Below the pieces are notes generated by a model. The model searched no databases and was not told the DNA's origin. It was given only the letters and a program-made list of their open reading frames with translations. From the NCBI GenBank assembly GCA_964634365.1, contig CAZWJU010000001.1, forward strand, positions 86,585-150,584: DNA of 64,000 nt, in the 5' to 3' direction. This stretch comes from an uncultured Candidatus Saccharibacteria bacterium. GTDB lineage: Bacteria > Patescibacteriota > Minisyncoccia > Phycocordibacterales > UBA9973. Position 1 is the first letter of the stretch; each line of letters starts with the position of its first letter. Position numbers and translations under genes: made by a program. Shown piece by piece: positions 1 through 13,307 of the stretch.

Positions 1-3000
1 GAAGTAGATAGTTCAACAGGGTCTCTTGTTTATAATTATCCAATCTACACAGCTCCCGGAAGAAATAATTTAACTCCAGAACTTTCTCTTTCATACAATT
101 CATCCACAGTAAATAATACTTCGATTGCAGGATTTGGTTGGAATATAGGTATACAGAGTATTGAAAGACTTAATAAAGATGGCGTATATGAATTATACGG
201 AGAAGATAATTTTACGTCTTCCATGTCAGGTGAATTAATTGGGGTTGATGCTACCAATTATGTATCAAAAGTTGAATCTGGAGATTTTATTTCATATGCA
301 AAAAGTGGTTCTGGATGGATAGCAAAAGACAAGAACGGTACTGTTTATAGTTTCGGTCTATCTGCTTCTTCAAGACAAGATGATCCTTCTGATAGTTCAA
401 AAGTATACAAGTGGATGATTGATAAGATTGAAGATACTAATGGAAATACAATCATATTTGAATATACAAAAGATAATGGACAAATATATCCAAGTAATAT
501 TTCTTATGTGAACGATGCAGTGGGAGCTATGACTATGGATATAGATTTTACTCTTATTTCCAATAGTCATCCATACAAAGAATACAAAACAGGTTTTGCT
601 GTAAAGAATAATTACCTAATAGACCAGATAACTATGTCAGTGGCAGGTTCATGGTTTTTAAAATACGATCTTGATTATACATATAGTTACCCAAACAACA
701 GAGCCCTTCTTTCTTCTATAGAAACCACAGGTAGAGATTCATCTTTAAATGAAGTAACGCAGGATCCAGTTGAATTTGAATATCAGCAATGGAGTTCAAA
801 TTGGATCGAAGATACTACATGGGAATCTCTTTTTCCGTATTATTCACCATCTTTATCTATCGGTTCTTATTCCTTTGGCGAAATAAACGGAGATGGATTG
901 CTCGATGTTGTTTGTGGAAAAGCATATCTGGGAGGTTACTGTTCAAATGACAATCCTGTAGTTGCTATAAACAACGGTGATGGATGGGAATCTTCCACCT
1001 TTGGATTCCCGGAAAAACCAGATGTACCTACGCAAAGAGAGAGGTTTATAACTTCTAGTGGTGAAGATAGTGGGCTAAGATTTTTTGATGTCAACGGAGA
1101 TAATTTGACTGATTTTGTGAGATCGACTGCTGATGGTTCATATGTATATATAAATGATGGTACAGAATGGGTTTATGATGCTTCGTGGGATATGATCCTT
1201 CCTTTTTCTGGAGGATATACAATACCAGGATCTTATTCTTTTGGAGATGTAAATGGAGATGGCCTTATAGATGTTGCATGTGCACAGGGGCAGTCTGATC
1301 ATAATTGCAACACATCGAATCCTTATTGGACGCTCGTTAATACAGGGTCTGGTTGGGAAAATACTGAAAACTATGGAGGAAGTGACGCGCTCGTAAGTTC
1401 TACCGAAGAAGATACTGGGGTGAGAATGGTAGATGTAAACGGCGACGGTCTAGTCGATTTCATGCGTGCAAAAAATTCTGATAACGAAACTTATATAAAC
1501 ACAGGCAATGGATACGTTGTGGATCCAGTCTGGGACTCACCACTTCCTTTTGTCGATAGCCTTACAATCCCTGGCTCAATTTCTTTTGGAGACGTAAACG
1601 GTGACGGATTAATTGATATCGCATGTGCACAAGGACAATCGGATCATTACTGCAATACATCTAATCCACAAGATATATACATAAACAATGGTGCTGGGTG
1701 GTCGGCTCAACATGTATATGGTGGACCAGATTCTTTTGTTGATGAAAGCGAAGAAGATACTGGGGTAAGAATGATGGATATAAATGGCGATGGGTTAATG
1801 GATTTTATCAGATCATATGAATCTGGAGGTCTACAAACAGATGTAAATATAAACGGAGGATTGAAGACAGATTTACTAAAAACAATCACTTCTTCTTCTG
1901 GAGCCGTTGCTTCTTTTGAATATAAACCTAGTACTCAGTATTTAGATGGATCAGGGGATTTGTTAAACAGCACTCTCCCTATAACCGTAGATACAGTAAA
2001 TAGCATCACGACTGATGATGGTTTTGGGAATGAATCCACAGAAACTTATACATATGCAGATGGTTTTTATTATTTCAACACACCTCACGATCGTAAATTT
2101 GCAGGTTTTGGACTTGTTACAAAAAATGATGGAGTTGGAAATGTAACAAAAACATATTTTCATCAAGGTAATGTCACCGATACTGCAAATGGTGAATATG
2201 ACGATCATATTTCAAAAGCAGGAAGACCTTACAGGGTAGAAGAATATAACGACTCCAATGACTTATATCGTTTGACGGTAAATAAGTGGGATAAATATAA
2301 TATCGGAACTAATCATGATTTTGTAAAGTTAGTCAGGAGTACAATACTAAATTATGATGGTGACGCCGATCATAAAGATACTGCAACTGAATATACTTAC
2401 GATAATGCAAATGGAAATCTTCTAACTAGCATAAACTGGGGCGAAGTTACAGCTTCCACAGATGGGTCATTTACAGATACAGGTAGTGACAAGTCAACAG
2501 AGACATCAACCTATACTTCGAATATTGGGGCAAATATTTTAGGCCTTCCTTCGCAAATTACTACTGTCGATCAGTCTGCAAATAAGGTTAACGAAACTAG
2601 ATATTTCTATGACAATCAGACATTTGGCAATGTGACAGATGGAAATATTACAAAAGAACAAAAATGGGTTTCTGGTACAACATACCAGACATGGAAAAAG
2701 TCATATAATGCAAATGGAACAGTAGCAACTGAAACAGATCCAAGAAATAAGGTTACTGCCTACACAACATATGATTCATATGGATTGTATCCGCTAACAG
2801 TTACCAATCCATTATCACAGACAACAACATATTCCTATGATTACTCTTCTGGAAAAGCCATCGAAGTAACTGATGGCAACGGATCAAAAAAAGAAATGGT
2901 TCTTGACGGATTCGATCGTCCACTTGAAGAAAAAATTTCTGATCCAACCAGTGGAAGTCAGGTAACCAAGACTACATATGCATACAACGATACATCTTTC

Positions 3001-5670
3001 CCGCATTCCGTTACAAAGAATGATTATCTTGATTCAACAATTGCTCGAACATCTTATTCATATATAGATGGACTTGGACGAACAGTACAGGTAAGAACAG
3101 AGATGGAGGATTCTGGAGACTACTCAGTTAAAGATACTGTATACAATGAGCTTGGATTGGTGGAAAAAGAATCTTTACCATATACGGATACTGGGTCTTC
3201 ATACGAGTCTCCTACAGGGACTACATCGCTGTATACGAATTACACATATGATGCTCTTAAACGTCCGCTTACAATCGCAAATAATCTTGGGACAACAACA
3301 AATTCATACGATCAATTGATGACTACCACTACTGATCCACTAGGAAAAGTGAAAGATTATATCAATGATGCACGAGGAAATCTAACTAGTGTTGTTGAGC
3401 ATGATGGAGCGAGTTCATATACCACAAACTATGAATGGAATTTAAATGGAATGCTTACTAAAATTACTGATTCTTTGTCAAACATAAGAAACTTCACTTA
3501 TGACGGTATTGGCAATAGATTAAGCGCAGAAGATTTACATGCTGTCGGAGATGCAACATTTGGTGCATGGACCTATTCTTACGATGCTTCTGGAAACATG
3601 GCACAGTCTGTTTCTCCAAAGGGTGATACTGTGAATTACACATATGATGATATAAATCGACAACTTACAGAGAATTGGACAGGAGGAACAGGAACTGAGA
3701 TCACCTATACATATGATTCATGCACCGAAGGAATAGGATATCTTTGCTCTGCAACTGTTTTAGGAGGAGTGGCAACTACATATGTTTATACTCCAAATGG
3801 ACTCATAAAGTCGGATACAAGAACAATTTCAGGAACTGGATACACAACTTCTCGTATTTATGACAGACAAGGAAGTATCACACAAATGCAACTCCCAGAT
3901 TCATCACAGATGAGGTATACCTCCAACTCTGCGGGACTAAAGGAGACAATGCAGAAAAAAGAAGTTGGAGGAAGCTGGACCAATGTCCTTACTGACATCG
4001 ATTATGCACCAACAGATCAAGTTGCATATCTTGCATACCAAAATGGAGTGACAACAACAAATACTTTTGATTCGACAAAACTCTATCGTCTCACAAATAA
4101 AGTGACTGCAAAGACGGGTGGCTCAACATTCCAAAGCATTGCATATACATATGACGCTGTTGGCAATATCACAAATCTTGTTGATAGTGGTGCAACAGGA
4201 GGAGCAAAGACATTTGCAATGACATATGATAACCTCCATCGTCTCACATATATAAATGCAACAGGTCTCGGAACAGGAACTGCGTACAATCAGACTTTCG
4301 CATATAACTCAATCGGAAATATCACTTCCGTCACAGGTACTGGAGGAACTCTCTATCCTACAACCCAATACAACGGTTTCGCTGGTTCAAGTTATGCGAA
4401 CCCTCATGCCGCAACAAAGATAGGAGGAGTAAACCGTACATATGATCAAAATGGAAACATGTTAGGTAACGGTACTCTAACTAATACTTGGAATTACAAA
4501 AATGAATTGACACAAACAGTTGTAGGAGCAAATACCATGAGTTATACATATGACCACAATGGTGATCGTATGACATATACAAATCCAACTGTAACTACAA
4601 TTACTCCAAGCAAAGAATATGAAGTTACAGGAACCCTTAAAAAGAAATCACTTTATCTTGGTGATGAACTTATCGCAACAACTGAGGATAATGCAGGTAC
4701 AATCACTCCTCACTATGCTCATACAGATCACTTGTTTGGTTCATCAGTCATGACCTCAAGTACAGGAACACAGGATGAACTAGTAGACTACTATCCATTC
4801 GGAGAAGGTAGAGTAGATACTCTTGCGGGCTCTTTCAAGGAACGTCATAAGTTCACAGGACATATCAGAGACGAAGACACTGGACTTGAGTATGCAAAAG
4901 CGAGATACTTGAATACGAAGTATAATCGGTTTATTTCGCAGGATAAAGTGTTTCAGAGTTTGGGAGACAAACAAAGAACTAATGAGTTAAGTGGTCAAGA
5001 TGATCAACTAATACTTCAAGATCCACAATCTTTAAATTCATATGCATATGCAAGAAATAATCCGTTCAAGTACGTTGATTATGATGGAAATTGGTATAGT
5101 GAATTCTTGAGTGGACACCAATCAACTTCAAGTTTTGTTGGAGAAGTTGGGAATGCGGCTGCTCATCTTGGTCCAACCTGGCAATCTGCTATGAATCATC
5201 CCGTTGCTACAGGCGCGATTGTAGGTGTAGGAGCTGGTGCGGTGGCTCTGGGAGGATCGGTAGGAGCTACGGCTTTAAGTGCCGAGTTGCTTGGTAGTGC
5301 AGGAACTGCTTGTGTTGCAGCATGTGGTAATATACAAAAAGTAATTCAAGAGTCCCCGCAGTCTCTTGGAAAAGCCGGAGAAGTTGCTTCAGGTTTAGTG
5401 AAAAATACACAAAGAATTGAGTCTGCAACAGGGTCTGCAAAATATAGAATACCTGATGGATTGGATCATGCGAATAGAATTATTAGCGAAGTTAAAAATG
5501 TTAATCAGCAAAGTTTAACTAGTCAAATAAGAGACTCAATTATCTACTCTCAGAGAAATGGTTATAGATTTGATCTATATACAAGATCGACAACACAAAC
5601 TTCAGGACCACTTAAAGATTTAATTAGTAAAGGTCAGATTGTATTAAAAAATCTTGGTAATATAAAATAG
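1..5670 (+). CDS. Rhs/YD-repeat polymorphic toxin, 5'-partial (continues upstream of window). SpvB-like N-terminus, FG-GAP/VCBS-type repeats, RHS repeats, RHS-associated core and C-terminal PD-(D/E)xK-like nuclease tip
   Basis: Frame 1 is open from base 1, so the ORF is truncated by the window edge. N-terminal SIAGFGWNIGIQSIERL resembles the SpvB/TcB N-domain. Repeated FGDVNGDGLIDVACAQGQSDH units are FG-GAP-like. Dozens of YTYDxxGN(L/M) YD/RHS repeats follow. RHS core end ...NTKYNRFISQD...YAYARNNPFKYVDYDGN has a degenerate DPxGL motif. The final ~190 aa contain a Gly/Ala-rich hydrophobic stretch, then RIPDGLD...ISEVKNV, a PD-(D/E)xK-like motif. Confidence 0.85.
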   Translation, partial: EVDSSTGSLVYNYPIYTAPGRNNLTPELSLSYNSSTVNNTSIAGFGWNIGIQSIERLNKDGVYELYGEDNFTSSMSGELIGVDATNYVSKVESGDFISYAKSGSGWIAKDKNGTVYSFGLSASSRQDDPSDSSKVYKWMIDKIEDTNGNTIIFEYTKDNGQIYPSNISYVNDAVGAMTMDIDFTLISNSHPYKEYKTGFAVKNNYLIDQITMSVAGSWFLKYDLDYTYSYPNNRALLSSIETTGRDSSLNEVTQDPVEFEYQQWSSNWIEDTTWESLFPYYSPSLSIGSYSFGEINGDGLLDVVCGKAYLGGYCSNDNPVVAINNGDGWESSTFGFPEKPDVPTQRERFITSSGEDSGLRFFDVNGDNLTDFVRSTADGSYVYINDGTEWVYDASWDMILPFSGGYTIPGSYSFGDVNGDGLIDVACAQGQSDHNCNTSNPYWTLVNTGSGWENTENYGGSDALVSSTEEDTGVRMVDVNGDGLVDFMRAKNSDNETYINTGNGYVVDPVWDSPLPFVDSLTIPGSISFGDVNGDGLIDIACAQGQSDHYCNTSNPQDIYINNGAGWSAQHVYGGPDSFVDESEEDTGVRMMDINGDGLMDFIRSYESGGLQTDVNINGGLKTDLLKTITSSSGAVASFEYKPSTQYLDGSGDLLNSTLPITVDTVNSITTDDGFGNESTETYTYADGFYYFNTPHDRKFAGFGLVTKNDGVGNVTKTYFHQGNVTDTANGEYDDHISKAGRPYRVEEYNDSNDLYRLTVNKWDKYNIGTNHDFVKLVRSTILNYDGDADHKDTATEYTYDNANGNLLTSINWGEVTASTDGSFTDTGSDKSTETSTYTSNIGANILGLPSQITTVDQSANKVNETRYFYDNQTFGNVTDGNITKEQKWVSGTTYQTWKKSYNANGTVATETDPRNKVTAYTTYDSYGLYPLTVTNPLSQTTTYSYDYSSGKAIEVTDGNGSKKEMVLDGFDRPLEEKISDPTSGSQVTKTTYAYNDTSFPHSVTKNDYLDSTIARTSYSYIDGLGRTVQVRTEMEDSGDYSVKDTVYNELGLVEKESLPYTDTGSSYESPTGTTSLYTNYTYDALKRPLTIANNLGTTTNSYDQLMTTTTDPLGKVKDYINDARGNLTSVVEHDGASSYTTNYEWNLNGMLTKITDSLSNIRNFTYDGIGNRLSAEDLHAVGDATFGAWTYSYDASGNMAQSVSPKGDTVNYTYDDINRQLTENWTGGTGTEITYTYDSCTEGIGYLCSATVLGGVATTYVYTPNGLIKSDTRTISGTGYTTSRIYDRQGSITQMQLPDSSQMRYTSNSAGLKETMQKKEVGGSWTNVLTDIDYAPTDQVAYLAYQNGVTTTNTFDSTKLYRLTNKVTAKTGGSTFQSIAYTYDAVGNITNLVDSGATGGAKTFAMTYDNLHRLTYINATGLGTGTAYNQTFAYNSIGNITSVTGTGGTLYPTTQYNGFAGSSYANPHAATKIGGVNRTYDQNGNMLGNGTLTNTWNYKNELTQTVVGANTMSYTYDHNGDRMTYTNPTVTTITPSKEYEVTGTLKKKSLYLGDELIATTEDNAGTITPHYAHTDHLFGSSVMTSSTGTQDELVDYYPFGEGRVDTLAGSFKERHKFTGHIRDEDTGLEYAKARYLNTKYNRFISQDKVFQSLGDKQRTNELSGQDDQLILQDPQSLNSYAYARNNPFKYVDYDGNWYSEFLSGHQSTSSFVGEVGNAAAHLGPTWQSAMNHPVATGAIVGVGAGAVALGGSVGATALSAELLGSAGTACVAACGNIQKVIQESPQSLGKAGEVASGLVKNTQRIESATGSAKYRIPDGLDHANRIISEVKNVNQQSLTSQIRDSIIYSQRNGYRFDLYTRSTTQTSGPLKDLISKGQIVLKNLGNIK

Positions 5671-5674
5671 TAAT

Positions 5675-6076
5675 ATGGAAAATATAAAGGAGTTGCAGAT
5701 AACATTAACAGACCTTGCGGTAAAGGTTGCATTGTTTTATAAAGTGAAACTTGATTTTTCTTTAAACTCAGTAAAAAAAGTTGAAGATGTTTTATCAAAA
5801 ATAAGCGAAGAATACAAAAAAAATCAGAACGAGGAAGGTATAGAAGGCATTGCTCTCGAGTTTGCCGCATATATTATCACTGTTATCGAGAGGAATTTGC
5901 TTTTAGGTAAATGGCAACGAGACTCAGAATTAGGAAAGGATACATTTCCATATGATCTTGGAAATAACAATTATATTTTCCCCTATGCATGGTGTCAAAA
6001 AAGAATATTTGATGGCGATGAAGACAATGTTTGGCAAAAGTTTAAAACTTTGGTTTTAGATAAGTATCAAAATTAA
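5675..6076 (+). CDS. putative cognate immunity protein of the Rhs C-terminal toxin (133 aa, no recognisable family)
   Basis: Starts 5 bp after the toxin stop on the same strand. Small acidic cytoplasmic protein. This is the canonical toxin-immunity gene order of polymorphic toxin loci. Confidence 0.4.
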   Translation: MENIKELQITLTDLAVKVALFYKVKLDFSLNSVKKVEDVLSKISEEYKKNQNEEGIEGIALEFAAYIITVIERNLLLGKWQRDSELGKDTFPYDLGNNNYIFPYAWCQKRIFDGDEDNVWQKFKTLVLDKYQN

Positions 6077-6232
6077 AAATAGTCCAAAAAGTGTCTCACT
6101 TTGTCCTATTTTCGTATACGCACGAGAAGGGTCATCGTGGTATTGTAAAAAGGTACTAATTAACCTTGTGGGGTAAGGAATCAAAAAGTTCTATCTCGAG
6201 AAGGCTCACCCCATCATATTTCATCTAAGTAA

Positions 6233-7957
6233 GTGAAATATGTATATAAAATTATATTTACTATCGTTTTCATAACATTAAATAATATGTCTATAAAAAG
6301 TGTGTCTACAGAACTTAAACGTTTTTTAGAATCAAAAGATCCTGAGGTAATCTGTATTATGGGTAAATGGGGTATAGGTAAAACTTATACTTGGAAAAAA
6401 TACTTACAAGAAACATCACAAGCAAAGAAAATTGGTCTTAAACGATATTCTTATGTGAGTTTATTTGGATTGAATACAATTGAATCAGTAAAAAACACTC
6501 TCTTTGAAGCAACAGTAGAAACTGATTGTATTAAGAATGGGCCAAATATAAAAACATTTCAAGATAATTTTAAGTCAATGGAGGTAACCGGACGTGCTCT
6601 TACAAGATTAGCCAGGAATCTTCCGAAAATTAAAGATTATGTTCCTGATATGTTCATTACTGTTCGTAATCAAATTATTTGTATTGATGATTTAGAGCGA
6701 ACAGGCGGTAATTTAAGTACTATAGAAATATTCGGCCTCATTTCCTTTCTTAAGAACGAGCGTAACTGCAAAATAGTCCTTCTTTTTAATGATGAGCAAC
6801 TTAAAGATGCAGAAAGCGCAGAATTCAAGAAGCAGCTTGAGAAAGTAATTGACATTAAGATAAGATTTGAACCTCTTCCGGAGGAAGCAGCAGATATAGC
6901 AGTAGACAAAACCACATCCTTTTGTGAGGAGTTGTCAAAAGTAACTACTGCACTGGGTATAACTAATATAAGGGTAATTAAGAAGATTGAAAATTTATTA
7001 AAAAAATTAGAAAAATTACTTATTGATAATGACAGGAGAATATTTAATATTTCAATCTCTTCAGTAGCGCTTCTTAGTTGGTCAATTTACGAACCAACAT
7101 TTGCTCCATCATTGGACTTCATAAAAAACTTTGTTAAATATGCCGATATATTTCTTGATAAGGACAAACAAGAGTCTGAAAATGAAAAAAAATGGCGCTT
7201 AATGATAAATAGTATTCAATTTTCTAATTTTGATGAATGGGATGCATTATTATTGACTATAGTGCAAAATGGCTATATTGATGAAGAAATTTTACAAGAT
7301 AAAGCAAAAGAACTAGATAAGCAGTGGGAACTACAAGATAATGATAATTCGTTTCATGAAGCATGGCAAAAATATCGTCACTCTTTCGATCTAAATGATG
7401 ATACTGTCTTAAATGGGCTTTATGAAGCATTTAAGAAAAACGTGCAATCCGTTAGCCCAACTAATTTAGATGCTACACTTGTTTTGTTTCGTAAATTTAA
7501 TAGAAATGATCAAGCAAATGAAATGGTTGATTTGTATATGAATACAAGAGATGAAAAACCAGAATTCTATGATTCTAATCGATCTATGTTTTTAAATATC
7601 AAGGATCCAGTTTTAATTACAGCTTTTACAAAAAAACTATCAAGTTTTAAGGACTCTAGAAGTACTCAAGAGATTTTGGAAAAAATTGCAAAAAATAGTG
7701 GCTGGAACCCAGAAGATATCGAAGCATTAACTGCAGTTTCAGAAAATGAATTTTATGATTTATTTAAAAAAACTAAAGGGAACCAATTAATAATAATAGT
7801 GAGCCAAGCGCTTAAATTTGCTTCTTATAATCCTTCTGATGAAAAAATGGAAAGAATTAGTCTAAATGCAGAAAATGCATTAAAGAGAATTGCAAAAGAA
7901 TCAAAAATGAACTCTGAAAGAGTTAAATCTTTATATGGCATAACCATAGATGATTAG
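6233..7957 (+). CDS. KAP-family P-loop NTPase
   Basis: Walker A ICIMGKWGIGKTYTW matches the KAP hallmark GxWGxGK[ST]. Walker B IICIDDLERT. 574 aa, mostly alpha-helical C-terminus. Confidence 0.6.
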   Translation: MKYVYKIIFTIVFITLNNMSIKSVSTELKRFLESKDPEVICIMGKWGIGKTYTWKKYLQETSQAKKIGLKRYSYVSLFGLNTIESVKNTLFEATVETDCIKNGPNIKTFQDNFKSMEVTGRALTRLARNLPKIKDYVPDMFITVRNQIICIDDLERTGGNLSTIEIFGLISFLKNERNCKIVLLFNDEQLKDAESAEFKKQLEKVIDIKIRFEPLPEEAADIAVDKTTSFCEELSKVTTALGITNIRVIKKIENLLKKLEKLLIDNDRRIFNISISSVALLSWSIYEPTFAPSLDFIKNFVKYADIFLDKDKQESENEKKWRLMINSIQFSNFDEWDALLLTIVQNGYIDEEILQDKAKELDKQWELQDNDNSFHEAWQKYRHSFDLNDDTVLNGLYEAFKKNVQSVSPTNLDATLVLFRKFNRNDQANEMVDLYMNTRDEKPEFYDSNRSMFLNIKDPVLITAFTKKLSSFKDSRSTQEILEKIAKNSGWNPEDIEALTAVSENEFYDLFKKTKGNQLIIIVSQALKFASYNPSDEKMERISLNAENALKRIAKESKMNSERVKSLYGITIDD

Positions 7958-8096
7958 TCCTCGAAAGACTGGAAAGATTTTAAATTAATTTTCTATATAT
8001 CCTGAATGTTTAATCTTGTTAACAATAATGCCTTTGTTTGTTCAGAAAGTTATTCTGTGGAATTACAGCATAATTATTTCATGCTAAAATAATCCC

Positions 8097-8486
8097 ATGA
8101 ATCATTTTGGAGAACATGTAACCTTGGATGGTTACGGGGGAGACGAAGAATTGCTAAACAGCAAAGATGTAGTACTGGCTTGTCTTAAAAATCTGCCTGA
8201 GCTACTCGACATGCATATACTCGCAGAGCCTGTTGTGTATTTTGCAAAAGGCAACGACGACAAAGATCCAGGTGGCTGGAGTGGATTTGTAGTGATAGAG
8301 GAGAGTCATATCAGTATCCATACATTTCCAAAAAGGGGATTTGTGAGTATCGATGTGTATACCTGCAAGAATGGTATGGATCAGAAATATATAGAAGATT
8401 ATTTTATAAAAGAATTCAAACTCACTGACACAGAAACGAACTTCATAATCCGAGGCAAGAAGTATCCTGAGAAGAATCTAGTGTAA
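8097..8486 (+). CDS. speH: S-adenosylmethionine decarboxylase proenzyme, pyruvoyl-dependent archaeal/Gram-positive type
   Basis: Motif EESHISIHTFPKRGFVSIDVYTC matches the AdoMetDC self-cleavage/active-site region (ESHISIHTWPE...IDVFTCG). Confidence 0.8.
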   Translation: MNHFGEHVTLDGYGGDEELLNSKDVVLACLKNLPELLDMHILAEPVVYFAKGNDDKDPGGWSGFVVIEESHISIHTFPKRGFVSIDVYTCKNGMDQKYIEDYFIKEFKLTDTETNFIIRGKKYPEKNLV

Positions 8487-8492
8487 ATATTA

Positions 8493-8526
8493 AACCCCAT
8501 TTCAGTTGAAATGGGGTTGTATTTTA
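8493..8526. terminator. bidirectional intrinsic terminator (AACCCCATTTCAGTTGAAATGGGGTT + T-tract)
   Basis: Perfect GC-containing hairpin followed by TTGTATTTT. Lies between convergent genes. Confidence 0.6.
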
Positions 8527-8877
8527 TAAACTGAGGAACTCGAATAAAATCATCATTAGTTTTCCAAGTTCATCATTTAAAACGTTTAAACCAGTGACAA
8601 CATTCCTGCGCTTTTCTTTTTCTAATGTCTTTTCGATCTCTGCAGATACTTCTTTGATCAAGAATATGGCATTGTAGAAACTGTCTTTATGGAATGTAGT
8701 ATTTTTGTGTGCTATTTGCGGATTATCCATCTTGATAGCATGAATAATTCCTGGTTCAAATTTTTGCTCAAAGTATTTCTTAAAAGCTTTGTTGGAAGGG
8801 GAATAAGTCATTATTTCATCTATGGACTTCAGTGCAAGATGTAACTTTAAGGAGAATTTATAGCTGTTGTTTATCAT
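8524..8877 (-). CDS. hypothetical protein (117 aa)
   Basis: Clean ORF between two terminator hairpins. No recognisable motif. Confidence 0.4.
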   Translation of the reverse strand: MINNSYKFSLKLHLALKSIDEIMTYSPSNKAFKKYFEQKFEPGIIHAIKMDNPQIAHKNTTFHKDSFYNAIFLIKEVSAEIEKTLEKEKRRNVVTGLNVLNDELGKLMMILFEFLSL

Positions 8878-8950
8878 TTTTTTGGTACATTTAGTTTATA
8901 AAACAATAGCATAATTTTATCAAAAAGTCAAATAAATTTAAAAAAAATTA

Positions 8951-8977
8951 AAACCCGGGACTTCCGGGTTTTTTTTG
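8951..8977. terminator. intrinsic terminator (AAACCCGGGACTTCCGGGTTT + T8)
   Basis: Hairpin plus U-tract. Confidence 0.6.
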
Positions 8978-9331
8978 TTATTTCTTCATTTTGATTACTA
9001 CCTCGAGAAATTTCTCGGTGATGCAGTATCTTCCCAGCTCATCTTTTACCAGGTATCCAGGGCTAAGATAACATGTTGTGAAGGCAACTGGGGCACCTCC
9101 TTCTACTAAAGCTCTCAATACAAGTCCTTCACTATTTGTGACATTGTGCTCACAAAGTCTTTTATAATCTTCCCATGAAAATGGTGTCCATTTGTCTGGG
9201 TTGATTTTGTTTTGAATAAATATGATATTTTGTGAGATTATTTCAGTCTCACGGCTTTGCCAAGAGCTACCTCCAAGGCTTATACCTGCAAGATCTTTTG
9301 GGAATATTTCAGTTAAGATTTTATTTTCCAA
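8978..9331 (-). CDS. hypothetical protein (117 aa)
   Basis: ORF with no recognisable family. Downstream terminator at 8951-8977. Confidence 0.4.
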   Translation of the reverse strand: MENKILTEIFPKDLAGISLGGSSWQSRETEIISQNIIFIQNKINPDKWTPFSWEDYKRLCEHNVTNSEGLVLRALVEGGAPVAFTTCYLSPGYLVKDELGRYCITEKFLEVVIKMKK

Positions 9332-9379
9332 TTTTTTTAATTTTCTATATTATACATTTTAATTATCAAATGTCAAACA

Positions 9380-9412
9380 AAAACACCTCAGACTGAGGTG
9401 TTTTTGTTTTTA
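9380..9412. terminator. intrinsic terminator (AAAAACACCTCAGACTGAGGTGTTTTT)
   Basis: Perfect hairpin flanked by A- and T-tracts, therefore bidirectional. Downstream of trxB (minus) and of the 8978-9331 gene region. Confidence 0.6.
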
Positions 9413-10345
9413 TTTATTCTTGTGAACCCAGATATACAGGTCTTCGAGGGCTTTGACAGCATCCCCGGCTGCTATGTTGTTTTGGTGGTATAGGCCGTTT
9501 GTAGCGTCTCCTGCAGCCCATATACCAGCTACTGAGGCTCTTTGGTTCATAGGGTCGACGATTATCTTGCGTTCCTTGTCGAGCTCTACAAAACCAGTCA
9601 AAAAGTCAGTATTTGGCAACTGGCCGATTTCTACGAATATTCCAGTTGTAGGTAGTGTTATTTCCTCGCCTGTATTTTTATCTTTGTAACTTATAGACTC
9701 TACAAATTGTGAGCCACTTACTTTAGTGATTTCTGCATCGGTTATGATTTTTGCTTTTGGATTTGCTCGAAGTTTTTCAACGGTTACTTCATCTGCGCGG
9801 AACTCAGAGCTTCTGTGGATTAGAGTTACGCTTTTACAATATGCAATAAGTTGGAGCGCAGATTCAAATCCAGCGTTGCCTCCACCTAGTACCACTACAT
9901 CTTGGTCAGAGAAAAGTGGGCCATCACACGATGCGCAATATGTGATACCTTTGTTTTCGTATTCAGTAGCTCCAGGTACATCGATTTTTCGTCTTTTTGA
10001 ACCAGTTGTGATAAGTACACTTCGAGTTTCGATTTGTTTACCATCGTTTGTACTAACTACAAATATATCGTCTTTCTTTTCAATTTTTTCTGCGCGCACA
10101 CCTTCCATGAGTGTTAGGGATTTACCATTGTAGTCTTCAGCGTGTTCTTTTAGACTCTTTGCTAGCTCCGCGCCAGAAATAGCCTTAGTTCCAATCCAGT
10201 TGTATATAGTTTCAGAGACGCTTGATTGTCCTCCAAATTCTTCTGCTATTAAAAGTGTCTCAAGGCGCTTGCGTGCGGCGTATACTGCGCCTGCTACTCC
10301 AGCTGGCCCTCCTCCTAAAATTATTAGATCGTATGTCATAGACAA
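9410..10345 (-). CDS. trxB: thioredoxin-disulfide reductase
   Basis: FAD-binding YDLIILGGGPAGVAGAVYAARK, redox-active CASCDG motif (CxxC), NADPH-site VVLGGGNAG. 311 aa. Confidence 0.85.
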   Translation of the reverse strand: MSMTYDLIILGGGPAGVAGAVYAARKRLETLLIAEEFGGQSSVSETIYNWIGTKAISGAELAKSLKEHAEDYNGKSLTLMEGVRAEKIEKKDDIFVVSTNDGKQIETRSVLITTGSKRRKIDVPGATEYENKGITYCASCDGPLFSDQDVVVLGGGNAGFESALQLIAYCKSVTLIHRSSEFRADEVTVEKLRANPKAKIITDAEITKVSGSQFVESISYKDKNTGEEITLPTTGIFVEIGQLPNTDFLTGFVELDKERKIIVDPMNQRASVAGIWAAGDATNGLYHQNNIAAGDAVKALEDLYIWVHKNK

Positions 10346-10795: not shown

Positions 10796-10825
10796 AGAAA
10801 AATCCCCAGAGGGGATTTTTCTTTT
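10796..10825. terminator. intrinsic terminator (AAAAATCCCCAGAGGGGATTTTT), probable ftsZ terminator
   Basis: Perfect hairpin with flanking A/T tracts, immediately 3' of ftsZ on the minus strand. Confidence 0.65.
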
Positions 10826-10863
10826 ACTAGAAATTAGTTGCCTAAATTCTAATCTTACTATTT

Positions 10864-12072
10864 TTATTTCTTAGGTCGTCTTAGGAAAGCCGGCACCGCA
10901 CTCCAATCATCTGTATCATCTTCAAAAATATCATCTTCTTTTACCTCTGCTTTTTTTAGGTAGTCTGAAGGTAGAGAGTTGTGTATTTCTTTCTTTGGTT
11001 CGATTATTGTTTCAGGTTTAGGGCTAGGTTGTATTACAGGCTTTGCTTCAAATTCTTTTTGTCCTTGGAAAAGAGATCTCTTTGAAGAATCAGTAGGGAA
11101 TCCAGTTGCAATAACTGTAACCTTCATTTCACCTTTTTTGAGTCTTTCATCGCGGATTGTTCCGAATATTACACGTGCATCTTTGTCTATAGATTCTGTA
11201 ATTATTTTCGCTGCTTCTTGGATTTCTAGTATTCCCAAGTCATCTCCACCTGAGATTGCAAAGAGTACTCCGCGTGCTCCGTTTATAGATAGATCGAGTA
11301 GAGGAGAGTTTATAGCTTGTAGTGCTGCAGTTTGTGCGCGGTTGTCTCCAGATCCAAATCCGATACCCATGAGTGCACTTCCTGCATCTGACATAACTGC
11401 CTTGATGTCTGCAAAGTCTACGTTGATTATACCTGGAGTTGTGATCAGGTCTGAGATTCCTTCTACAGCTTGGCGCAAGATTTCGTCGCAAAGTGCAAAA
11501 GCTTGTTTGAATCCAGTGTCTTTATCAGCAATCATTAACAGACGGTCGTTTGGTATTACGAGTATTGCATCAACTTCTTTTTCAAGCTCACTTAGTCCAT
11601 TTTCTGCAAGCTTCATGCGTTGATTGCCTTCAAATGAGAATGGTTTTGTAACTACTGCTACTGTTAGTATCCCTTGTTCTTTTGCTGCTCGAGCTACGAT
11701 TGGAGCTGCTCCAGTACCTGTTCCTCCTCCCATACCGCAAGCGATGAACACCATATCTGCGCCTTTTATTGTGTCTTGGATTTCAGCTTTTGTTTCTTCT
11801 GCAGCTTTCTTGCCCACATCAGGGTTCATACCAGCACCAAGACCTTTGGTAAGGTTTTTACCAATGTGAATTTTCTTGTCTGCTAGAGACTTGTGGAGGT
11901 CTTGTGTGTCAGTATTCATACATATGAATTCAACACCCTTTACCTTAGAGCTAATCATGTGGTTTATGGCATTGCCGCCGGATCCTCCGACTCCAATAAC
12001 CTTTATTCGTGCAAATGTTTCAATTTCTGGGTTTATTTTAGGCATACAAAACGGCATTTGGGGATCCCCCAA
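10864..12072 (-). CDS. ftsZ: cell division GTPase FtsZ
   Basis: IKVIGVGGSGGNAINHM and tubulin signature GMGGGTGTGAAPIVA. The true start may be an internal Met (MPKINPEI). Confidence 0.9.
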   Translation of the reverse strand: MGDPQMPFCMPKINPEIETFARIKVIGVGGSGGNAINHMISSKVKGVEFICMNTDTQDLHKSLADKKIHIGKNLTKGLGAGMNPDVGKKAAEETKAEIQDTIKGADMVFIACGMGGGTGTGAAPIVARAAKEQGILTVAVVTKPFSFEGNQRMKLAENGLSELEKEVDAILVIPNDRLLMIADKDTGFKQAFALCDEILRQAVEGISDLITTPGIINVDFADIKAVMSDAGSALMGIGFGSGDNRAQTAALQAINSPLLDLSINGARGVLFAISGGDDLGILEIQEAAKIITESIDKDARVIFGTIRDERLKKGEMKVTVIATGFPTDSSKRSLFQGQKEFEAKPVIQPSPKPETIIEPKKEIHNSLPSDYLKKAEVKEDDIFEDDTDDWSAVPAFLRRPKK

Positions 12073-12152
12073 ACGCGTACTAAAAGTAGTAATGGACCAA
12101 AACTGTTATACCAGTCACTATACCAGATAATATTGAAAAGACACAAGGGGTA

Positions 12153-13307
12153 CTAGGGGAGTAGCTGTTTACCCAAAATTCTGAAGAATTTTTTGAGATT
12201 TGTGAGTATTCCGCCCCCGCCTCCTATCATAGATGATTCTTTTTGTATTATCGCAAGACCAAATGCGTTGCTCCAAACAGAATCACGGATTTTACCTTTT
12301 GATATTTCTACTAGTTGATCTATTCCTAGTCTTGCAGGAAGTTTAAGTGAAAGTCTTGCTCCTTCTTCGAGATTCGTAAACTGAGAACTGCCTCCGATAA
12401 ATATTGCACCTGCAGGTAACAGTCCAGATCTACGAATTTTTTTCAAATGTGTATCTATTAGCTCGAACATATCAGAGAGTCTTGCTTCAATAATGTCGTC
12501 GAGTTTTCTTTTTGTGAAATTACTCATTATGCTTCCAGTTTTTATACCTTCTGCTTCTTCTAGAGGAATTTTCAATCCGAGTGCGATATCGTTTGTTATG
12601 TCGTTTCCTCCAATAGGGAAGACTGACATTGTTACAGGTTGGTTGTCTTCATAGACTACGATACTTGTAGTTTCAGAACCGATATTTACAAGTACGCAAC
12701 CTGCGGTTTTTTGTTTTTCACCAAGGTGTATTACTCCTGCAGCTACAATACTAGGTACTATATCTATAATATCTACTCCAGCTTCACTAACAGCTCCTAT
12801 AAGCAGATCCAAATGTTGAGCTAGGGAAGTATTGAAAAGTGTTTTTACTTCAAGCTTTACACCCTTCATACCGATTGGCGAACCTAAAACATTTTTACCG
12901 TCTATACGAAAAGCGATCGGGTGGTTGTCGATTATTTTTTTGTTGGCTAGAGTGAGTTCTTCTTCGGATTCTAGTATGGCTTTTTCTACGTCTAAGTGAG
13001 TAACTTCACTGTCTGCCTTTGATATGATCGCAGAGCCAGAGCTTGTCTCGCACGCTAGTGTGACTCCGCCTACACCTAGCATGACTCTTTTTACAGATAC
13101 TCCAGAATTTTTCTCAGCATCTTTTAGAGCACGTAGGACTGATGCAGAAACATGAGCCTGATTTACGACATATCCATGTCGCATACCTCGAGTAGGAGCA
13201 GAGCCAAGTCCAATAACCCTTGGGTATTGTTCACCCTGTATTTTTTCACACACAACAACACGTGTAGTTTGTGTGCCTACATCTAAACCGGCTGTAATAT
13301 TTCGCAT
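12153..13307 (-). CDS. ftsA: cell division protein FtsA (actin-like ATPase)
   Basis: N-terminal ITAGLDVGTQTTRVVV phosphate-1 motif, actin fold, directly upstream of ftsZ. Confidence 0.85.
   Translation of the reverse strand: MRNITAGLDVGTQTTRVVVCEKIQGEQYPRVIGLGSAPTRGMRHGYVVNQAHVSASVLRALKDAEKNSGVSVKRVMLGVGGVTLACETSSGSAIISKADSEVTHLDVEKAILESEEELTLANKKIIDNHPIAFRIDGKNVLGSPIGMKGVKLEVKTLFNTSLAQHLDLLIGAVSEAGVDIIDIVPSIVAAGVIHLGEKQKTAGCVLVNIGSETTSIVVYEDNQPVTMSVFPIGGNDITNDIALGLKIPLEEAEGIKTGSIMSNFTKRKLDDIIEARLSDMFELIDTHLKKIRRSGLLPAGAIFIGGSSQFTNLEEGARLSLKLPARLGIDQLVEISKGKIRDSVWSNAFGLAIIQKESSMIGGGGGILTNLKKFFRILGKQLLP

Follow-up and report, generated by a model that had tools for sequence, protein, structure and literature searches.

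A candidate Rhs-type nuclease toxin and its predicted immunity gene in a Paceibacterota/Nomurabacteria-like CPR bacterium

We analysed a 64,000-nucleotide stretch of contig CAZWJU010000001.1 (assembly GCA_964634365.1, positions 86,585 to 150,584 of the forward strand), hereafter the window. At its left edge lies a gene for a very large Rhs-type protein of the TcdB/TcaC type, followed by an open reading frame (ORF) of 133 aa. An original prediction, made from the nucleotide letters, had described the first 5.6 kb as a single open frame of more than 1,880 codons truncated by the edge. Indeed, frame 1 of the plus strand is open from base 1 to a TAG at 5668-5670, which is directly followed by a TAA, and 1,889 codons were counted in 1-5670. 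The distance between the first stop codon and the 133-aa ORF is 4 nt. The features of the locus are listed below; residue numbers of the toxin refer to the amino acids of the frame within the window.

1..5670, plus strand: Rhs-type polymorphic toxin gene; 5' end cut by the window edge, 1,889 of 2,001 codons inside the window.
13..489, plus strand: SpvB (TcB-like) N-terminal domain; aa 5-163; Pfam PF03534, E 8.8e-21.
868..1818, plus strand: integrin-like FG-GAP beta-propeller; about aa 290-606, boundaries approximate; FG-GAP_3 in five stretches, E 1.7e-16; FG-GAP, E 4e-08.
1918..4788, plus strand: RHS/YD-repeat shell; about aa 640-1596; about 20 YD repeats; includes a DUF6443-like stretch.
4789..5088, plus strand: RHS repeat-associated core domain; aa 1597-1696; TIGR03696, E 4.1e-13, profile positions 1-75 of 76.
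5194..5328, plus strand: Gly/Ala-rich hydrophobic pre-toxin segment; aa 1732-1776; 22 Gly and Ala in 45 aa; Kyte-Doolittle hydropathy up to 1.55.
5368..5613, plus strand: Tox-REase-7 nuclease domain; aa 1790-1871; Pfam PF15649, E 8e-22, profile positions 1-84 of 84.
5675..6076, plus strand: predicted cognate immunity gene; 133 aa, isoelectric point (pI) 4.95, no signal peptide; undescribed family.

The missing 5' part of the toxin gene was read from a contig of the Logan collection (L072), which covers window bases 1-94, is identical over the aligned stretch and also carries the exact small ORF. A gene call at 3991-9996 of this contig yields a product of 2,001 aa, 112 aa of which are absent from the window. 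In these 112 aa, a Sec-type signal peptide is followed by a linker that is acidic and rich in Pro and Glu. The N-terminus (MYKKTNIPHNFLKLMYRLTAFFAAFLLFFQPIGVLFVYA/EDD) runs from a basic start through a hydrophobic core to an Ala-X-Ala-like end, by which the signal peptide was called by eye, without a predictor. Both the true start and the secretion signal, which the original prediction had expected from extension of the contig upstream, were thus recovered.

The remaining domain order was established by profile searches in Pfam and NCBIfam, which reproduced the SpvB/TcB-like N-terminus, the FG-GAP repeats and the RHS core named in the original prediction. In the propeller region, recurring D(V/I)NGDGL(I/V/M)D motifs can be read in the translation. 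Within the shell, Pfam RHS_repeat (PF05593) matches aa 1123-1158 (2.4e-11), NCBIfam TIGR01643 matches with 1.4e-05, and a DUF6443 match at aa 1007-1081 (3.8e-06) falls slightly under its cut-off in Pfam. The number of YD/RHS repeats, originally put at about 30, had to be lowered: a self-built profile gave 23 matches, about 20 of them within the shell at aa ~680-1530. Over 1,387 aa the shell is 40% identical to that of an Rhs protein from a Parcubacteria metagenome-assembled genome (MAG; locus L001), the tip and adjoining immunity gene of which are unrelated to those in the window. The tip of the window protein, on the other hand, also occurs in L019, behind a different RHS core, and in L003, where there is no shell. 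Related shells thus carry unrelated tips, as is characteristic of TcdB/TcaC-type Rhs toxins.

Behind the core follow about 190 residues, consisting of a linker, the Gly/Ala-rich stretch and a basic domain. The motif RIPDGLD...EVK in this domain had initially been read as a PD-(D/E)xK nuclease site, and the search supports this with a named family: PF15649 is matched over its full profile with 77.8 bits in the whole protein (cut-off 25) and 83.6 bits (1.2e-23) in the isolated tip. The tip contains GKAGE at 1790-1794, RIPDG at 1816-1820, SEVK at 1829-1832 and TSQIRD at 1840-1845, with E1794, D1819, E1830/K1832 and Q1842 as the key residues. All four motifs of Tox-REase-7 (GxxxE, IxD, ExK and Q; PMC3482391) are therefore present. 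The residues G, E, I, D, E, K and Q of these motifs are invariant in an alignment of the window tip with eight relatives (nine sequences). By this profile match the tip is a regular, full-length and above-threshold member of Tox-REase-7, a family of the restriction-endonuclease (PD-(D/E)xK) fold. In searches against PDB sequences, the tip profile and a profile of the 133-aa family gave chance matches only (ribosomal proteins, E >= 0.14).

Nuclease activity and toxicity of the tip are predicted from data on the family. The Tox-REase-7 toxin CdiA2-CT of Acinetobacter baumannii damages DNA in E. coli (PMC6831553), and Tox-REase-7 effectors add to type VI secretion system (T6SS) killing in Campylobacter jejuni (bioRxiv 10.64898/2026.03.25.714310). 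The Gly/Ala-rich hydrophobic linker of the original prediction was located at aa 1732-1776 by composition and hydropathy. In an AlphaFold2 (AF2) model it is unstructured, with a predicted local distance difference test (pLDDT) score of about 40. Since a comparable Gly/Ala-rich segment precedes the nuclease domain in the shell-less relatives P0028, P0030 and P0031, the segment belongs to the toxin cassette. Speculatively, if any part of the protein helps the tip through the target membrane, it is most probably this one.

In TcC and Rhs proteins, which release their tips by aspartyl autoproteolysis, the aspartates are the residues that matter. The DPxGL motif of the core was originally described as degenerate (DYDGN). 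This motif lies at aa 1693 and its proline is indeed lost, but an alignment with the cores of L001, L019 and L076 showed that both aspartates, D1648 (RFISQD) and D1693 (DYDG), and the glycine are kept. RF(I/L)SxD and NPxxxxDxxG motifs are common to all four cores. The proline after each aspartate is replaced in the window protein, giving QDK (QDKV) for QDP and DYDG for DPxG; the other three cores retain the prolines, so that the loss is confined to the window protein. We predict the core to be an autoproteolysis site that releases the tip, and its processing seems plausible, though uncertain.

The 133-aa ORF is most likely the cognate immunity protein of the tip, as judged from sequence and gene context. 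It had been noted before as an acidic ORF in the immunity position, and its pI of 4.95 contrasts with that of 10.0 for the tip; this opposite charge was counted in favour of a toxin-immunity pairing. The protein was confidently modelled as a helical bundle with a small beta element. Its family comprises about 700 sequence clusters, and the third-best protein match is 3 aa shorter than the ORF. Pfam and NCBIfam gave no family match for the ORF, and PADLOC none either. Even at E <= 10, no Pfam match to ImmHEAT, Imm23 or Imm54 was found among 27 members of the family. Longer proteins carrying the domain were considered as possible fusions, but they gave only sub-threshold matches (DMP19-like, DUF1871, DUF695) and this argument was dropped. 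A search for a terminator-like site 3' of the gene found none.

To place the ORF in context, we surveyed 55 metagenome loci with a relative of the 133-aa ORF and nine species-representative genomes. A Tox-REase-7 module or its remnant lies upstream on the same strand in 7 of the 55 metagenome loci. It is directly upstream in L018 (same sequence as L003 and L004), L019, L021, L022 and L048, and 700 bp upstream in L028; in L017 the toxin is reduced to its final 45 aa, behind a Y1 transposase-like ORF. The immunity relatives of all seven loci are 49-63% identical to the window ORF. Because the toxin ORF of L019 opens with the end of a canonical RHS core, this is a second Rhs-Tox-REase-7-immunity locus. 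At the level of gene order, the 133-aa family thus accompanies this toxin sub-clade repeatedly. In the distant Tox-REase-7 modules P0030, P0032 and P0035, genes for 221-233 aa occupy the immunity slot instead, and two of these have sub-threshold HEAT_2 matches. This fits with the record of ImmHEAT as a Tox-REase-7 immunity partner (PMC3482391). Slot occupants that differ by toxin sub-clade are the pattern expected of immunity genes.

The ORF also appears to travel by itself. An activated-sludge contig (L079) has 92% nucleotide identity to the window only at 5672-6209, that is, the ORF and 130 bp. The matching stretch begins directly behind the toxin stop codons, and the ORF closes a series of six small ORFs on the same strand, including one for a Cys_rich_CPCC protein. 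In L001, a 58%-identical orphan copy lies downstream of the 2,755-aa SpvB/FG-GAP/RHS protein; this protein ends in an unrelated tip and has a small gene of its own beside it, likewise unrelated. A 90-aa ORF between these two small genes was considered as an orphan toxin and rejected: its sequence is not similar to that of the tip and suggests a membrane protein. By adjacency, substitution and cassette movement, comparative gene context thus supports the role originally assigned to the downstream ORF.

Housekeeping proteins are encoded elsewhere in the window (FtsZ, FtsA, YbeY, a PriA-like protein, a Mur ligase, MreB, BipA and DnaK), which places the locus on the chromosome. Scans with Rfam and for tRNAs found nothing in the window. 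The taxonomy was taken from a comparison of DnaK, the best matches of which are 80-95% identical. The named ones among the best 120 listed are Nomurabacteria, Paceibacterota, Pacebacteria, Yanofskybacteria, Patescibacteria or unclassified 'bacterium' MAGs, all of them candidate phyla radiation (CPR) lineages or unclassified MAGs. The assignment to a CPR genome thus stands and can be narrowed, by DnaK sequence, to a Paceibacterota/Nomurabacteria-like bacterium. A toxin of this kind had been called unexpected in such a reduced genome. Rhs toxins are known in CPR (PMC6031116) and we found a second Parcubacteria MAG with one; the gene is therefore less unexpected than it appeared.

We consider it probable that the locus is a TcdB/TcaC-type Rhs toxin-immunity pair on the chromosome of a Paceibacterota/Nomurabacteria-like CPR bacterium and that it works as follows. 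The 2,001-aa protein would be exported by Sec, and its RHS repeats would close into a shell around the C-terminal region of about 190 aa. The aspartyl protease of the RHS core would then cut after DYDG. The freed fragment, made up of the linker, the Gly/Ala segment and the basic nuclease domain, would enter the cytoplasm of a neighbouring bacterium. There, a metal-dependent PD-(D/E)xK site (E1794, D1819, E1830, K1832) would cleave nucleic acid, with DNA as the likeliest substrate. The producer would be protected by the acidic, cytoplasmic 133-aa protein, which would bind and block the nuclease. The parts of this scheme that are established at the sequence level are the domain order, the Sec-type signal peptide, the Tox-REase-7 membership with intact motifs and the co-occurrence of toxin and immunity gene.

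Several observations weigh against this scheme. The first catalytic Glu lies on a helix at the N-terminus of the nuclease domain that the AF2 model gives with low confidence. Replacement of both prolines of the core could impair autoproteolysis. No delivery partner such as TcA was found within the window or the 4 kb that precede it. Finally, no toxin adjoins the relative of the 133-aa ORF in ~45 of the 55 metagenome loci and in 8 of the 9 genome loci; these orphans have neighbours such as SecA, alanine racemase, sulfatase, histidine kinase and aldehyde ferredoxin oxidoreductase. With most relatives free of a toxin, the immunity role may not extend to the family as a whole.

The alternative that survives best concerns the substrate only: the tip might be an RNase, for example a tRNase or rRNase, instead of a DNase, with the rest of the scheme unchanged. 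We regard this as unlikely. Functional data for Tox-REase-7 point to DNA damage (PMC6831553), and the tip has the complete metal-binding E/D/ExK set that is typical of DNases.

If the tip is not released, the locus could be a decaying or inactive Rhs element whose protein has a surface or adhesion role only, or no function. The changes from QDP to QDK and from DPxG to DYDG, which occur in the window protein alone, would fit such decay. On the other hand, the 6-kb frame is intact throughout, with none of the four nuclease motifs and neither of the two core aspartates lost, and 4 nt further on comes an intact immunity gene. A dead toxin is not expected to keep its motifs and immunity gene. An inactive element is for these reasons improbable.

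The orphan copies raise the question whether the 133-aa ORF belongs to a broad housekeeping or accessory family and neighbours the toxin by chance. Its relatives are mostly toxin-free and spread over many phyla and unrelated contexts, and it matches no curated immunity family. The eight orphan genomes belong to Bacteroidota, Chloroflexota, Bacillota, Verrucomicrobiota and Gemmatimonadota; the ninth genome is the Parcubacteria MAG of L001. No Tox-REase-7 was found upstream of the immunity homologues in the nine genomes by a narrow hidden Markov model applied to all loci or, for the eight loci outside Parcubacteria, by Pfam in the ORFs lying upstream, so these copies are orphans. However, eight independent loci, including the window, combine the ORF with a Tox-REase-7 module or remnant, in six of them directly upstream with short gaps. 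HEAT-like genes fill the same slot in sister toxins. In L079 the ORF has been carried as a cassette into a row of small ORFs, and an orphan copy lies behind another Rhs gene. Such orphans are known behaviour of immunity genes, for which widespread orphan copies and 'heterogeneous polyimmunity loci' have been described (PMC3482391). A chance neighbourhood therefore has a low probability in our judgement. Of the association between ORF and tip expected in other genomes, the part concerning the closest relatives (seven other loci) was confirmed, while the wider family is mostly stand-alone.

Very improbable is a function as the BC subunit of a Tc toxin complex delivered into eukaryotic cells through a TcA pore: a TcA partner is absent from the 64-kb window and the 4 kb upstream, with no TcA-sized ORF in the 58 kb downstream (largest 657 aa), and pairing of the tip with a cytoplasmic immunity gene points to a toxin active against producer-like bacteria. 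A T6SS Rhs effector was rejected, as Pfam found no PAAR or VgrG match and the N-terminus is a Sec-type signal peptide. The description of the toxin as contact-dependent in the original prediction was not borne out: the protein carries this signal peptide, and no injection partner could be recognised in its vicinity.

Beyond the Rhs toxin-immunity pair that we favour, one might imagine the toxin less as a weapon against kin than as a tool of episymbiosis, that is, a TcA-independent, Sec-exported nuclease directed against the host or non-CPR neighbours, for example to kill them for nucleotides that the CPR cell is unable to synthesise. The many stand-alone 133-aa copies in Bacteroidota, Chloroflexota, Bacillota, Verrucomicrobiota and Gemmatimonadota would then be acquired host defences and the Gly/Ala segment a self-contained translocation device. 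We consider this extension a long shot.

Some genes around the locus were recorded as well. Behind the immunity gene, at 6233-7957 on the plus strand, lies a gene for a KAP-type P-loop nucleoside triphosphatase of 574 aa (Pfam 9.5e-07) that matches PDC-S49, a candidate defence family of PADLOC, with 1.2e-21. The GC content of this patch is 30%, compared with about 37% in the rest of the window. This suggests a horizontally acquired defence gene beside the toxin locus. It is directly followed by an S-adenosylmethionine decarboxylase gene (8097-8486, plus strand; PF02675, 4.9e-25), after which an ordinary chromosome order of a thioredoxin-reductase-like gene, FtsZ, FtsA and YbeY is found; the decarboxylase likely marks the right-hand end of a variable region. 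Upstream of the Rhs gene, positions 1-3754 of L072 encode a large serine recombinase (Resolvase/Recombinase/Zn_ribbon_recom), a helix-turn-helix protein and a DNA methyltransferase of N6/N4 type (PADLOC MTase_II, 9.5e-51), and the toxin may be located at the margin of an island or integrated element. Altogether the toxin locus looks like part of a variable 'conflict' region.

The related loci hold further genes of this kind. In L001, positions 10810-12734, behind the Rhs/immunity cluster, encode a nucleotidyltransferase with SMODS and AGS_C domains and a SLATT_4 protein, which form a defence pair resembling cyclic oligonucleotide-based antiphage signalling systems (CBASS). The Rhs loci of both CPR genomes, that of the window and that of L001, seem to lie in defence islands. 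The Rhs gene of L001 (1007-9274) has an insertion of ~790 aa between two BLASTP segments with two Rha78A-like Ig domains (1e-31), and its tip, which has no Pfam match, is followed by an unrelated 137-aa ORF, the two forming an uncharacterised toxin-immunity pair. Y1 (IS200-like) transposase genes (Pfam Y1_Tnp) lie immediately upstream of immunity homologues in L005 (9272-9949) and L006/L007 (56-733), and Y1-transposase-like ORFs, judged by eye, in L017 (32-715) and L003 (1436-1780, a remnant). The transposase may mobilise or disrupt the immunity cassette. Rows of small same-strand ORFs surround the orphan immunity copies in L079 (43-1738) and L003 (2659-2934). They hold two paralogous proteins of 121 and 126 aa, a Cys_rich_CPCC protein and a family of ~86-91 aa that is common to both loci, and are probably further undescribed immunity families.

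TcdB/TcaC-type Rhs toxins (PMC3482391) share with the window locus the signal peptide, SpvB domain, propeller, RHS repeats, core, variable tip and downstream immunity gene; they differ from it in the DPxG prolines of the core, which the window protein has lost. Among Tox-REase-7 toxins, CdiA2-CT of A. baumannii DSM30011, the CdiA-CTs of Pseudomonas (PFLU_3191, Psefu_0121) and CJ488_0980/0982 of C. jejuni likewise have a PF15649 tip and a small downstream immunity gene. These proteobacterial toxins are delivered by the type V secretion system (T5SS; CdiB/CdiA) or the T6SS in diderms, whereas the window toxin has a Sec-exported Rhs shell and a CPR host. Its immunity family also differs from those of the toxins from Acinetobacter, Pseudomonas and Campylobacter. 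Zhang et al. (2012; PMC3482391) link Tox-REase-7 to the type II (T2SS), T5SS, T6SS and type VII (T7SS) secretion systems, and neither to the TcdB/TcaC type nor to a CPR lineage. In CPR, an Rhs toxin of 2,487 aa next to an immunity gene has been reported from the Saccharibacteria genome 'T. rhizospherense' (Starr et al. 2018; PMC6031116). It resembles the window pair as a very large RHS/YD polymorphic toxin with an immunity gene in a CPR genome and is set apart by its description, which gives PA14 and galactose-binding domains and mentions no Tox-REase-7 tip.

For the 133-aa protein, ImmHEAT, Imm23 and Imm54 are alike in genomic position and presumed role; its family has no sequence match to them. 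Its structural relative is PDB 3hlz (BT_1490 of Bacteroides thetaiotaomicron, function unknown), to which it is 9% identical, with no match at the sequence level. 3hlz is 269 aa long and has an extra N-terminal beta-sandwich domain, with a resemblance to the T6SS immunity protein Tsi3 (PMC3792639). That 3hlz might define Pfam DUF3806 was supported by neither a Pfam match nor a paper and is not claimed.

The architecture, the Tox-REase-7 tip and the occurrence of Rhs toxins with immunity genes in CPR are thus already known. New, to a limited degree, are the combination of a Tox-REase-7 tip with the TcdB/TcaC export type, the CPR host and the proline-less core motif; a modest novelty is the undescribed immunity family with its first structural relative. 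The locus leaves current concepts of polymorphic toxins unchanged.

Interactions of Paceibacterota (CPR) with hosts and competitors are poorly understood. To our knowledge, these bacteria cannot use the T6SS or contact-dependent inhibition (CDI). The conserved hydrophobic pre-toxin segment offers one testable way in which a tip might cross the target membrane without an injection machine. The more useful outcome is the immunity family of ~700 clusters: it can now be assigned to one Tox-REase-7 sub-clade, and it also hints at a function for the orphan structure 3hlz. The locus itself provides an annotated example of what is probably an Rhs nuclease toxin-immunity pair in Paceibacterota.

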